From the IMG/VR virus record IMGVR_UViG_3300045391_007586: DNA of 64,000 bases; one strand, written 5' to 3'. The first letter of the stretch is position 1, and each line of letters begins with the position of its first letter. Shown piece after piece: positions 28,400 to 62,950 of this stretch. The notes beneath the pieces were generated by a model, which searched no databases, was not told the origin of the DNA, and saw nothing but the letters and a program-made list of their open reading frames with translations. The DNA is from a virus (lineage: Duplodnaviria > Heunggongvirae > Uroviricota > Caudoviricetes). The position numbers were made by a program, and so were the translations under genes.

Positions 28400-28424
28400 G
28401 GATGTTATCCGTCCCGTCTGCGCG

Positions 28425-29429
28425 CTACTCCGTCTTGAGGGTCAGCCCGAGCTTCGTCAAGATCGTCGTCAGAAGCACGCTGTCCGGGTTCGGCTTCATG
28501 ACGCCTTTCTCGCGAACCGTGAGCTTGAGCAGCGGAAAGAGCTGGAAAATCTGGTTCGCTTGCGCGCTCGCCGTGCCCGGTGCATACGGACGGGCGAGGT
28601 AGTTCTTCTGGAGGTTGCCGCCGACGCCCGAAGACAACTGGCCGTCCTCCGCGAGCACCTTGAAGGCGCGCTGCATGTATTCGTTGAGCTTGCCGCCGTT
28701 GCGCACCCATCCGAAGAGCTGCACCGCCTTCTCGCCGACCTTCTTGGCCGTCTTGTTCGGGTCGTCCAGATCACGCAGCAGCGCCGAGCGCTTGGCTTCG
28801 AGCTCTTCCGGCGAAAGCAGCGCATCGGCCGTCTCCATGATCAGGTAGTCGTGCGCCTTGTCCCCGAGCTTCGCCATGATCTTCTCCGACTTCTTGGCGA
28901 ACGGGTTGCGCAGCACCGAAGGTGTCTTCGGCTTGCTCGCTTCCGCGGGTGCCACCTTCGTGCCCGCCAGGTCCGTTTGCGGGGCGTCCGACGCTTCCGC
29001 CTTCTCGTCGCCCGCGTCATCCGTCGAAGCACTCACGTCGCTCGCCATCGAGCGCATTTCCGCGCCGGTCGGAAACGGCCAGTGAGGCAAGGGAGTAACT
29101 GCCGGGGTTTCGGGCGTCGCGCTCGCGTCCGCAGCTTCGGGCGCTTTCTCGCCCGCGCCCTTCTTTTTGGAGCGACGCGGAAGCGAATTGACCACGACGG
29201 CGGGCGCGCTGCTCGCGACCTTCTCGGTCTTTCCGGCGCGGGCGCTCTTCTCTGCCGGCGCTTCGATTTCGGCGGGCGTCTCGTCCGCCTTCGGCTCGAT
29301 CATCCCGCTCGACATGACGGGCGCACTGCCGCTCTCGGCCATTTCCTTCATCAGGTCGTCGAGAATCTGGTTCTCGTCCACGCCGCGCGCTGCGTTGATA
29401 GGCGCCTGAGTCGTCGTTTGAACTTGCAT
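28425..29429 (-). CDS. hypothetical protein, Ala/Pro/Glu-rich N-terminal half
   Basis: 334 aa with ordinary composition; the overlapping plus-strand ORF is Arg-rich and was rejected; motif 1 variant at 29470-29495 upstream. Confidence 0.5.
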   Translation of the reverse strand: MQVQTTTQAPINAARGVDENQILDDLMKEMAESGSAPVMSSGMIEPKADETPAEIEAPAEKSARAGKTEKVASSAPAVVVNSLPRRSKKKGAGEKAPEAADASATPETPAVTPLPHWPFPTGAEMRSMASDVSASTDDAGDEKAEASDAPQTDLAGTKVAPAEASKPKTPSVLRNPFAKKSEKIMAKLGDKAHDYLIMETADALLSPEELEAKRSALLRDLDDPNKTAKKVGEKAVQLFGWVRNGGKLNEYMQRAFKVLAEDGQLSSGVGGNLQKNYLARPYAPGTASAQANQIFQLFPLLKLTVREKGVMKPNPDSVLLTTILTKLGLTLKTE

Positions 29430-29558
29430 GGTGTCACTCCTTAGTGAGTCGTTCGGTTTCGGTTTTTGTTTTGTCGCTCAGTTGCGACAGAACGAACTTT
29501 AAAGACCCAACTTTGGCAGTAGTGACAGGCGAGGCACGTTTCCAATGAGGTCGCCAGA

Positions 29559-29583
29559 AACGAAAAAGGCGAGCTCGCGCCCG
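29559..29583 (-). terminator. possible terminator hairpin with U-tract (minus strand)
   Basis: ggcgagctcgcgcccgcc imperfect stem preceded on plus by gaaaaag (a U-tract on minus). Confidence 0.3.
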
Positions 29584-29619
29584 CCGTGGATACAGTCGCC
29601 CGCTTGGCGCGGGCCTCAG

Positions 29620-61700: not shown

Positions 61701-62073
61701 AGTGGTAGTAGAAGTAGTCGGCTGAGTTGGCTTTGGTGAGAAGGTTCAGGAGCGATCGCATGCCCTTGTCAGTCTTCACGAAAACCTTCAGCGTGTAGGA
61801 TGGGTTCGACTTTTCCTCTTCGCCACTCGACTTGGCAGGCACGCGATAACGCGGGTCTTCGTAGACCCGGAGCACACAGCCGACGATCGGCTTGATGCCC
61901 TTCTTCTTCGCCGCGTTCTGAAAGCTGACGGACGCATGCACAGACATTTCGTCCGCGAGCGCGACGGTCTGGTAGCCCAATTCCGCTGCCTTCTCGACGA
62001 TGTGGTCGACCTGGAGCATCGATCGTCCGACTGAGAAGTCGGACCTTACATTCAAATGATGATTCAGATTCAC
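58711..62073 (-). CDS. dnaE: DNA polymerase III alpha-type (DnaE) replicative polymerase with C-terminal UDG-like domain
   Basis: PHP domain N-terminus ([10 protein letters not shown]), polymerase core [39 protein letters not shown]; last about 160 aa show a family-4 UDG-like pattern; GTG start after AAGGA RBS. Confidence 0.9.
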   Translation of the reverse strand: [1120 protein letters not shown]

Positions 62074-62279
62074 GTTTGATCCTTCAACTGGATGGGTCGA
62101 CCGCAGAAACCGCAAAACTTGTGGCCGTCATCGGTCGGCAGCGGCGGCAAGCTGAAGCCGACTTCAATGGGCGCTTCCATCCGTATCTGATGCCCGCATG
62201 CAGTTTTCCAGTCAGCGCCATAACCGTCCTGGTCGACCTTTCGATATTCACAGTTCATGGGTTTCCTTATGTATGTCAT
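62070..62279 (-). CDS. small zinc-ribbon protein
   Basis: 69 aa with NCEY...CGH...CGFCG; overlaps the dnaE start (GTGA). Confidence 0.45.
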   Translation of the reverse strand: MTYIRKPMNCEYRKVDQDGYGADWKTACGHQIRMEAPIEVGFSLPPLPTDDGHKFCGFCGRPIQLKDQT

Positions 62280-62293
62280 CTACGACTGACAGT

Positions 62294-62950
62294 CTATTTG
62301 CGAATCGCTGGATTGAGAATGAAGGACTTCCCGCTCGCCACGACGATGTTCATCGGCTGCAACATGGCGACCGTGATCGATACGTGCGACCCGGCCGTGC
62401 CCTCGCTCTGCCCGAGCCGTTCCATGAACGCCTTCTTGAGCTGCGCCTTCGTGAAGCCACCCTTGAGCAGCAAGTCGCACGCAACGTTCAGGAACCGGGG
62501 CGGGTGATTCTCGAACGGGTTCTCCCCTTTCGAGAGTGCGACGATCGCACGCTCGATCATGTTCGCTTTCGCGAGCACGAGCGCCTGCGCCTTCGCCTTG
62601 ACGTTCCCGATGTTGGCGATCAGGTCCATCGTTCTCTGGTCGATCTCGAAGTCGACCTTGGCAACGACTGTCTTGCGTTCGATTGATTGCGGCAATGGCG
62701 CAGTCGTCGCAAGCGCGGTCTCCACGACGGCCGCTTCAGTCGGGTCCGGCGCCACGCCCATCTTCTTGCGCGCCTTCTCGTGCATATCGATCAGGTCTTT
62801 CACGTCGATGACAGTCCCGATCTCCGCGAGCGTCTTCAGCATCGCCTCGCCGCACTCCTTGTATGCGACGCACTGCTGGCAGTATTGCGAGTCAATCGCG
62901 TAGATGCTCGGGGACGCGAAGCATCCCGGAGCCTGAAGTTCTGGGTTCAT
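62294..62950 (-). CDS. hypothetical protein
   Basis: 218 aa. Confidence 0.5.
   Translation of the reverse strand: MNPELQAPGCFASPSIYAIDSQYCQQCVAYKECGEAMLKTLAEIGTVIDVKDLIDMHEKARKKMGVAPDPTEAAVVETALATTAPLPQSIERKTVVAKVDFEIDQRTMDLIANIGNVKAKAQALVLAKANMIERAIVALSKGENPFENHPPRFLNVACDLLLKGGFTKAQLKKAFMERLGQSEGTAGSHVSITVAMLQPMNIVVASGKSFILNPAIRK

Follow-up and report, generated by a model that had tools for sequence, protein, structure and literature searches.

Throughout a 64,000-nucleotide stretch of a tailed-phage genome (IMG/VR record IMGVR_UViG_3300045391_007586, Caudoviricetes; hereafter the window), a short inverted repeat of the form TCAGTC-N6-GACTGA recurs upstream of genes and in the orientation of their transcription. 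Our preferred reading, held with modest confidence on the basis of sequence comparison, is that this dyad is the operator, overlapping σ70-like host promoters, of a conserved phage-encoded dimeric helix-turn-helix (HTH) regulator that would act mostly as a repressor. This reading is built on direct observations: 31 sites, their internal symmetry, their position, their polarity, the conservation of the element in relatives and its co-occurrence with a gene for an XRE-type protein.

A polar dyad recurs in intergenic regions

To define the element, starting matches were extended, a position weight matrix (PWM) was iterated from them, and the iterated matrix became symmetric. The consensus proposed in the initial annotation (TCAGTCGTARCTGA) is strongly over-represented (four exact matches and 23 at no more than two mismatches; 0.58 expected), as is the half-pattern TCAGTCNNNNNNGA, found 29 times where 2.95 matches would be expected and where none of 100 shuffles gave more than eight. 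PWM iteration revealed a larger dyad, (GACAA)TCAGTC-N6-GACTGA(ttGTC), with an information content of ~26 bits across ~28 bp, a symmetric unit that is the 18-bp inverted repeat TCAGTC-N6-GACTGA and a core, AGTCA-N4-TGACT, that is shared by the phage family. The recurrent element described initially is thus real and its register has been corrected: the earlier TCAG...CTGA frame is a by-product of the symmetric dyad together with a frequent C at spacer position 10. A PWM scan of the window returned 31 sites, which include all 27 of the coordinates listed at the outset and four new ones (centres 12013.5, 14571.5, 15324.5 and 30121.5); because they span positions 1489–62289, the interval of 28400–62300 first assigned to the motif was too narrow. 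Near several sites the 4-bp periodicity CTGACTGAC produces "ghost" PWM matches displaced by 4 bp. An exact-pattern scan of IMG/VR with ATCAGTCGTARCTGA yielded single chance matches only and was uninformative. The dispersed dyad is most likely a genuine regulon signal, of a general kind that is already known.

Using a gene map from a home-made codon-usage predictor, supplemented by open reading frames (ORFs), we found no site internal to a predicted gene (0/31), a few sites overlapping the last codons or the stop of the upstream gene, and all 31 dyads within the 14% of the window that is non-coding. Of the 52 gaps between genes that measure 25 bp or more, 29 carry a dyad. The concentration outside coding regions that had been proposed therefore holds at every site, and the equal frequency inside genes that the initial annotation had named as counting against the motif was not seen. 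Placement upstream of start codons also stood, over a wider range than the 10–60 bp first given, with dyad centres about 20–135 nt from the next start codon.

Within each site the two arms differ in quality according to the direction of the gene. The gene-sense upstream arm, TCAGTC, is nearly invariant, and the downstream arm is degenerate (GACAGA, GATTGA, GACATA, GAGTGA and others), so that the upstream arm is the better one at 26–27 sites and the worse at none; further marks of polarity are a conserved purine at position 6 and a frequent C at position 10 of the spacer. The exact half-pattern occurs on the gene strand only at 23 sites (22 on the minus strand in regions of minus-strand genes, and the plus-strand site at 8737), and the perfect dyads centred at 6958, 12878 and 48556 match it on both strands. 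A strand flip could be tested at only two sites within the window, those before plus-strand genes (6950 and 8737), and both are flipped, as originally reported. The closest relative, Logan contig L133 (~84% DNA identity), which served as a stand-in for sequence beyond the window after an exact look-up of two window proteins gave no match, supplies a third, where an XRE gene on the minus strand is preceded by a site that is likewise on the minus strand although its neighbours are on the plus strand. Upstream-arm polarity follows gene direction at every informative site, in L133 as in the window, which bears out the orientation initially described.

The dyad is conserved in related temperate phages

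The window has a GC content of 60%, carries nearly all of its genes on one strand and encodes terminase, ParB-like proteins, a helicase, a ligase, RtcB, ThyX, NrdAB and SbcCD, along with a RecA-like protein, a gp32-like single-stranded DNA-binding protein (SSB), a 5′-3′ exonuclease, DnaE and CobS. Known phages are distant (DnaE at most 45% identical; Stenotrophomonas ANB28, Rhizobium RHEph10-like, Pseudomonas nickie and SSU5-like phage-plasmids), and closer relatives (DnaE 59–69%) comprise 15 IMG/VR contigs (nine of them 109–118 kb), a contig from a Paraburkholderia metagenome-assembled genome and a 113-kb Massilia sp. contig. Since L133 encodes an integrase and AlpA, another relative (L115) TrfA and ParA, and RHEph10 RepC and ParA, the family is temperate and plasmid-like, in agreement with the literature on RHEph10 and SSU5-like phage-plasmids (PMC7969092).

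The core AGTCA-N4-TGACT recurs in ~18 related ~110-kb temperate phages or phage-plasmids of Burkholderiales, where it is the top-ranked palindrome and is present in 60 perfect copies in ~300 kb of loci. Its flanks differ by lineage: the window and L133 have TC..GA, the L115 group has AC..GT or AT..AT, and the L125 group has TA..TA. Orthologous intergenic dyads stand ahead of both sbcD and the SSB gene, behind dnaE and in the cobT–cobS gap. At the site before dnaE, the window and L133 (position 7934) share both arms, including the degenerate GACATA, and differ in the spacer. Even RHEph10, with a DnaE only 41% identical, shares the element AGTCAGTCAATATTGACT before dnaB, recA and nrdB genes, among others; its positions 24002–24023 hold a 22-bp perfect palindrome, AGTCAGTCAATATTGACTGACT, built from 4-bp units (AGTC AGTC / GACT GACT). 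The dyad is absent from a 43-kb syntenic stretch of Stenotrophomonas phage ANB28.

Relation of the dyad to promoters and terminators

To relate the dyads to host-type promoters, we mapped −10-like hexamers (A at position 2, T at position 6 and at least four of six matches) in the window, counting offsets from the T of TCAGTC, and strong −10 hexamers across 141 sites of the family, counting from the A of AGTC. Peaks were found in the window at offsets −5/−7 (14 sites) and +16 (seven sites) and in the family at −16/−17, +13/14, +22 and +33 to +38, and at the family sites −10-like hexamers on the sense strand outnumber those on the antisense strand about twofold. Orthologous promoters in relatives carry perfect TATAAT boxes (for example L126 14996, L121 4108, L124 2446 and L125 14286), and the best promoter-like sites in the window coincide with dyads (8730–8758, 6943–6971, 57652–57624, 46267–46239 and 30113–30085). 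Expressed in promoter coordinates, the dyad centre falls at about +2/+4, −19.5 and −40.5 in the window and at about +10.5, −18.5, −27.5 and −41.5 in relatives. Most dyad sites lack a good −35 box and the arrangement of promoter and dyad varies. Reading the right arm, TGACT, as a plain −35 box was rejected, given that few sites have the correct spacing to the downstream −10 and that in many cases a mere ~15 nt separate the arm from the ATG.

The initial annotation had left a choice between a class of middle or late promoters and an operator bound by a global phage regulator. A link with promoters is apparent in these data, −10-like hexamers touching or overlapping the motif well above chance expectation; a fixed promoter element is not, because the position of the dyad relative to the −10 varies and an operator can occupy several positions, and the operator reading fits better. 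Dyads are indeed located, as claimed, before replication genes (dnaE, SSB, nrdA, sbcD) and the tail-fibre gene; since they precede early replication genes and terminase and tail-fibre genes alike, the motif is not specific to one temporal class.

Three dyads (1489, 30113 and 46243) are followed within 10–70 nt by strong intrinsic terminators that lie before the next gene, an arrangement that is awkward for a simple promoter. The resulting dyad–terminator pairs occupy 1400–1506 (where the intervening RNA, at 1400–1475, contains a CUCCUCCCC stretch), 30038–30130 and 46205–46260, and an Rfam search gave no match for any of these regions, which could give rise to small RNAs or to short transcripts that serve as leaders or attenuators, the terminase operon being one that might be so preceded.

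Candidate regulator

The initial annotation had advised a search for a phage-encoded sigma factor, RNA polymerase or regulator elsewhere in the genome. A domain search of proteins from the 64-kb window returned no RNA polymerase or sigma domain, and RHEph10 has no RNA polymerase annotated in two stretches (~93 of 115 kb) but a sigma factor only. A gene for a Sigma70_r2-only protein does lie beside dnaE, between cobS and a gene for a 218-aa protein, in L115–L131, RHEph10 and ANB28. Comparison of window positions 62294–63993 with L115 6793–10001 and L133 6073–7965 showed that the window and L133 lack it at the syntenic position, with just 6–11 bp between cobS and the 218-aa gene. Motif and sigma gene thus do not co-occur: the window and L133 have the motif but no sigma gene at that position, and ANB28 has the sigma gene without the motif in its 43-kb stretch.

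An XRE-type protein of 132–177 aa has a more suggestive distribution. Every motif-bearing lineage examined at this locus encodes it upstream of cobT and, apart from RHEph10, divergently from cobT; in RHEph10 (gp041) its gene lies just upstream of cobT. The putative recognition helix of XRE-132 is conserved, KPN(I/M)(L/I)(S/T)M..G..KLP, and the family is absent from the same 43-kb region of ANB28 that lacks the dyad. Dyads adjoin the XRE-132/177 gene in L115, L133 and RHEph10; five lie within 500 bp between the divergent XRE gene and cobT in L115, and both HTH genes of L133 are preceded by dyads. Across these few lineages the shared phyletic pattern of motif and XRE-132 is suggestive of the XRE protein as the candidate binder. 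A PDB sequence search with it returned noise only.

Within the window, no HTH regulator was found besides a MocR-type (GntR-family) gene in a low-GC island. The CobS gene (AAA_5/CbbQ_C; 62962–64000) runs off the window, with 343 aa visible against ~395 aa in homologues, which places cobT and the presumed regulatory region just outside. Two other proteins were tried as binders and rejected: the ParB_N proteins (5174–5833 and 6265–6918), as KorB-like binders, have only the N-terminal ParB domain, no HTH and no phyletic support, and the 218-aa protein (62294–62950) is conserved by synteny in motif-free ANB28, which makes it an unlikely binder.

Proposed mechanism and alternative explanations

Under the operator reading, which the symmetry of the element and its independently varying half-sites support, the dyads would sit over or beside the core of many host-type promoters that head short operons. 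Where, as at most sites, a dyad lies just downstream of a −10-like hexamer or in the spacer before it, a bound dimer would occlude RNA polymerase or block promoter clearance, so that placement in the promoter core or at +1 implies repression; operons for replication, nucleotide metabolism, recombination and some morphogenesis could in this way be silenced together, for example in a prophage. At the minority of dyads centred near −41 the same protein could activate, −41.5 being the classical class II activator position (CRP/FNR, lambda CI at PRM). The polarity of the site (a perfect promoter-proximal arm, a relaxed distal arm and the spacer purine and C) would reflect the asymmetry of the overlapped promoter, and the best candidate binder would be the XRE-type protein of ~132–177 aa encoded beside the dyad cluster near cobT in relatives. 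Binding itself, which protein binds, whether it represses or activates and where transcription starts are what we infer here.

Several points weigh against this operator reading. Full −35/−10 pairs (at least 9/12 matches) accompany only ~10 of the 31 sites, in various registers, and part of the "−10 association" may be intrinsic, since the motif itself carries TGAC and GACAAT strings that mimic promoter hexamers. A symmetric dimer alone does not account for a perfect arm that is always upstream, and so strict a polarity is unusual for repressor–operator pairs. Equally unusual is the conservation of a half-site over so large a phage divergence: operators of immunity repressors normally diverge fast, and a half-site kept between Rhizobium and Burkholderiales phages is more typical of an element read by conserved machinery or a host factor. 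By synteny the regulator gene would lie 2–3 kb beyond the window end (past 64000), its presence there being assumed. Finally, the long palindromes around a few dyads and the outer stems between cobT and cobS, both described below, hint at a structural role at those loci.

The first alternative, which we consider improbable though the likeliest of the rivals, is that the motif is itself a phage-specific promoter class, read directly by RNA polymerase redirected by a phage factor, with transcription starting inside or just after it; candidates are a phage sigma factor, a MotA-type appropriator or a single-subunit phage RNA polymerase. Its high information content, strict gene orientation and strictly intergenic location would suit such an element, as would the wide conservation of the half-site, which is typical of promoter elements; at the minimal spacing, with the ATG at motif position ~29–31, a start at the position-6 purine would leave plausible 5′ untranslated regions of ~23 nt, and relatives do encode the Sigma70_r2-only protein beside dnaE. 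Against it stand the true palindrome of the relatives, with its 60 perfect copies, a position relative to perfect TATAAT boxes that varies between promoters, a sigma gene that is missing from its syntenic position in the motif-bearing window and L133 and present in ANB28, whose 43-kb stretch lacks the motif, the failure to find a polymerase or sigma domain in window proteins, the occurrence of the motif before early and late genes alike, and three copies that run straight into strong terminators.

Less probable still is that the dyads act mainly as the stoperators of mycobacteriophage L5 do, obstructing RNA polymerase during elongation in a polar manner; a repressor bound to them in the prophage would keep transcription from running on into the next operon, in one orientation only. 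The layout is that of stoperators: many dispersed copies occupy narrow spaces between genes, frequently just past a stop codon, and all point the same way with respect to transcription (PMC9283540). In addition, the family is temperate and a convincing full promoter is seen at a minority of sites only. However, a monomer binds the asymmetric 13-mers of the L5 type, whereas the element here is a dyad, perfect in many relatives; −10-like hexamers are strongly enriched at fixed offsets, no homologue of the L5 repressor was seen, though no search aimed at one was made, and the test of polarity depends on few strand flips.

We give little credence to binding by a conserved host protein (a global regulator or nucleoid protein of Proteobacteria) in place of a phage regulator. 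Such a protein would explain a half-site common to phages of Alphaproteobacteria (RHEph10) and Betaproteobacteria despite 41% DnaE identity, and a regulator gene that was not found in the window, but the motif is accompanied by a conserved XRE gene of the phages that adjoins a dyad cluster, the 43-kb syntenic region of ANB28 is free of the motif, and, to our knowledge, the motif matches no host operator consensus (LexA, CRP/FNR, Fur, IHF or the CcrM site).

Signs of structure in the nucleic acid are seen at particular loci. A perfect copy of the dyad folds at −7.5 kcal/mol (z = −5), dyads often abut the Shine-Dalgarno sequence, and the report that several copies lie inside longer palindromes was confirmed at 31537–31568 and 21134–21170 and extended to 40407–40446 (18-bp stem, −35 kcal/mol; the same value applies to 40400–40452), amounting to only three or four copies. 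In the cobT–cobS gap of relatives (L126 6414, L125 5602, L115 6690 and L120 6731), the outer stems differ in sequence and stay complementary. These patterns suggest that at the cobT–cobS and long-palindrome loci the putative operator coincides with a genuine hairpin, which may be a terminator. As the function of the motif in general, a nucleic-acid hairpin, whether an mRNA 5′ stem-loop affecting stability, processing or translation or, in the DNA, a cruciform or a cassette for recombination of the T4 PeSL kind, was rejected on arm/flank complementarity that equals the column-composition expectation with no covariation across 31 sites and on uncompensated stem mismatches in more than half of the window copies (degenerate arms GACAGA, GACATA and GAGTGA included), and it is made very improbable also by single-mismatch variants in relatives that show no G-U bias (~10 wobble against ~27 non-wobble in a hand tally), an Rfam search of the motif that gave no family, and a sigma-gene indel, the only indel compared, that is not flanked by dyads.

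Carrying the operator reading further, we can imagine, as a speculative and rather unlikely extension, that the dyad and its XRE binder serve RHEph10-like and Burkholderiales temperate phages and phage-plasmids as a conserved programme of core transcription and not for immunity. One polar dimeric protein at more than 30 sites would then be a repressor where it covers the promoter core, an activator at −41.5 and a barrier to read-through in one orientation only, making the system a Gram-negative, dyad-based counterpart of mycobacteriophage stoperators, and the lineage of the window would have become independent of the family sigma factor.

Distribution of sites and neighbouring genes

Coordinates of individual dyads refer to the 18-bp unit, on the minus strand unless stated otherwise. 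Both plus-strand copies overlap promoter-like sequences. The perfect dyad TCAGTC gtaatt GACTGA at 6950–6967 (plus) lies in the 87-bp divergent gap between a ParB-like gene (6265–6918, minus) and a helicase gene (7006–8733, plus), flanked by TTGACT-17-GACAAT, and that at 8737–8754 (plus) precedes a plus-strand gene (8786–9028) and sits in the spacer of TTGACA-17-TACAGT (10/12 match). A small protein encoded in the operon that starts from the divergent 6950 dyad (6006–6263) has a domain like Tad2 (Thoeris anti-defence 2; Pfam E = 2e-22).

Upstream of a small ORF and dnaE (58711–62019) lies the dyad at 62272–62289, preceded by TAGACT and orthologous to the L133 site at 7934; the next, at 58689–58706, comes right after the dnaE stop codon and upstream of gene 57649–58647, with an orthologous site after dnaE in L115, L120 and L122. 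The top-scoring dyad (57628–57645) falls within TTGATT-17-GATAAT upstream of the gp32-like SSB gene (56705–57544), where relatives have orthologous dyads with TATAAT promoters, and the dyad at 56676–56693 precedes the 5′-3′ exonuclease gene (55715–56623). Upstream of ORF 53082–53489 is the dyad at 53507–53524, with TAGAAT before it, and the dyad at 53064–53081, with GATAAT before it, fills the 31-bp gap ahead of sbcD (51971–53050), a position with orthologous dyads in at least nine relatives. Another 31-bp gap is filled by the dyad at 48899–48916, which overlaps the stop codon of 48917–49510 and is followed by the Shine-Dalgarno sequence and GTG of 48583–48885. The perfect dyad at 48548–48565 lies upstream of nrdA (46264–48501), with a TATAAT 4 nt past its right arm, and that at 46243–46260 begins right after the nrdA stop codon, with the strong terminator 46214–46234 immediately downstream.

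Two dyads 51 bp apart (44860–44877 and 44809–44826) stand upstream of a 39-aa lipoprotein-like gene (44660–44779). The unusual auxiliary genes that follow at 38713–44019 encode the RtcB RNA ligase, a 2OG-Fe(II) oxygenase, ThyX and a PanD-like aspartate decarboxylase; the dyad of the 18-bp-stem palindrome (40418–40435), with TTGACT-17-TACCAT downstream, is upstream of gene 39934–40353 and RtcB. A TCAATC variant at 37995–38012 precedes gene 37754–37978, and the dyad at 37673–37690 precedes the tail-fibre-like gene (36469–37656; Peptidase_S74 chaperone domain). The latter adjoins a gene for a Cys/Asn-rich repeat protein (CNNGNCNNC...; 35477–36472) with a weak Hint-domain match, which itself comes after a radical-SAM gene (34092–35474), and the three genes (34092–37656) appear to form one operon headed by the 37673 dyad.

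Lower in the window, the dyad at 34012–34029, with TAGAAT before it, is upstream of gene 33393–33956, and that at 33367–33384 fills a 37-bp gap in which the Shine-Dalgarno sequence and ATG of gene 32822–33355 come 15 nt past the 14-nt TCAGTC...CTGA core. The dyad at 31543–31560, within the extended palindrome GCGGTATCAGTC..GACCGATACCGC, precedes gene 31098–31514; the one at 30113–30130 abuts TTGGCA-17-TATCAT (10/12 match) and is followed by the strong terminator 30047–30071; and a weaker dyad, TCTGTC gcaact GAGCGA (29474–29491), lies ~80 nt after the terminator 29568–29585 and upstream of gene 28425–29429. A low-GC accessory island at 22900–27400 carries zero copies of the motif and encodes the MocR-type GntR/aminotransferase regulator (22926–24332) and two EAL-domain (c-di-GMP phosphodiesterase) proteins (24965–26572 and 26644–27348), with strong terminators at 27444–27465 and 28298–28317 on its high-coordinate side.

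Below the island, the dyads at 21986–22003 and 21143–21160 (the latter within the palindrome 21134–21170) are upstream of genes 21177–21935 and 20661–21086, respectively. The near-perfect extended dyad ACAATCAGTC atcgat GACAGATTGT at 15261–15278 precedes gene 14985–15224 and has a second dyad, TCAGTC agcttc GCCTGA (15316–15333), 55 bp upstream of it; the dyad at 14563–14580 overlaps the last codons of ORF 14570–14791. TCTGTC variants at 13839–13856 and 13572–13589 precede genes 13620–13820 and 13364–13543, the perfect dyad TCAGTC gcaact GACTGA (12870–12887) is upstream of gene 12024–12788, and TCAGTC aaagca GACAGA occupies 12005–12022. The dyads at 12005, 14563, 15316 and 30113 are the four that were absent from the initial list. 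Lowest of all, TCAGTC atcgct GATTGA (1489–1506) is followed ~60 nt downstream by the terminator 1413–1431 and then by a terminase small-subunit-like gene (717–1382).

Comparison with known phage regulatory systems

Inverted-repeat half-sites at fixed spacing, as expected for a dimeric repressor, were found both in the window and in its relatives. In this respect the dyads resemble the operators of lambdoid CI/Cro, which are palindromes of 14–18 bp with a 4–6 bp spacer and which overlap the −35, spacer, −10 or +1, as the dyads appear to do, and the XRE-type gene adjoins an operator cluster in relatives in the same manner. At lambda OR2/PRM one protein has a dual role, activating near −42 and repressing in the promoter core, for which a parallel here is possible. 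Lambdoid operators are, however, limited to six sites in the immunity region, whereas the present dyads extend across the whole early/middle region.

Dispersed operators have precedents. The C1 repressor of P1 has ~22 operators spread over a ~94-kb phage-plasmid genome, replication functions included (PMC8546580), which resembles the many dispersed sites before replication and recombination genes of a temperate, plasmid-like phage described here. The P1 operator differs in being an asymmetric 17-mer (ATTGCTCTAATAAATTT) without sequence similarity to the dyad, the sites here are denser (31 in 64 kb), and the regulator is as yet a candidate only. The gp71 repressor of L5 (Cluster A) has more than 20 sites in promoters and short intergenic spaces, in an orientation that correlates with the direction of transcription (PMC9283540, PMC6550527), as for the intergenic sites of the window. 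Its two-domain monomer and asymmetric sites have no equivalent in a dyad that is perfect in many copies; its hosts are actinobacterial, and stoperators diverge between subclusters, whereas the half-site here is conserved across very distant relatives.

Cluster O mycobacteriophages likewise carry many inverted repeats, with more than 30 copies per genome of an invariant 17-bp TGTTCGG-N3-CCGAACA, predicted to be bound by a dimer and of unknown function (PMC4351075). About a third of those repeats lie inside genes, their orientation is meaningless and most are away from predicted promoters, whereas the present dyads are all intergenic, polar and tied to −10-like hexamers. T4 has short conserved motifs before many genes that combine promoter and stem-loop features, in its PeSL cassettes and MotA-box middle promoters (PMC4122927, PMC2839356). 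PeSLs join a promoter and a terminator stem-loop and are tied to indel hotspots, a link not seen here for the sigma-gene indel, and MotA boxes are asymmetric and fixed at −30.

If the operator reading is correct, one short sequence would define the regulon that silences or activates an uncharacterised family of ~110-kb phages and phage-plasmids, temperate in lifestyle, that live in Beta- and Alphaproteobacteria of the soil. It would offer an immediate handle for mapping their operons, with XRE-132 as the candidate master regulator, and could provide a basis for inducible switches in Burkholderiales.

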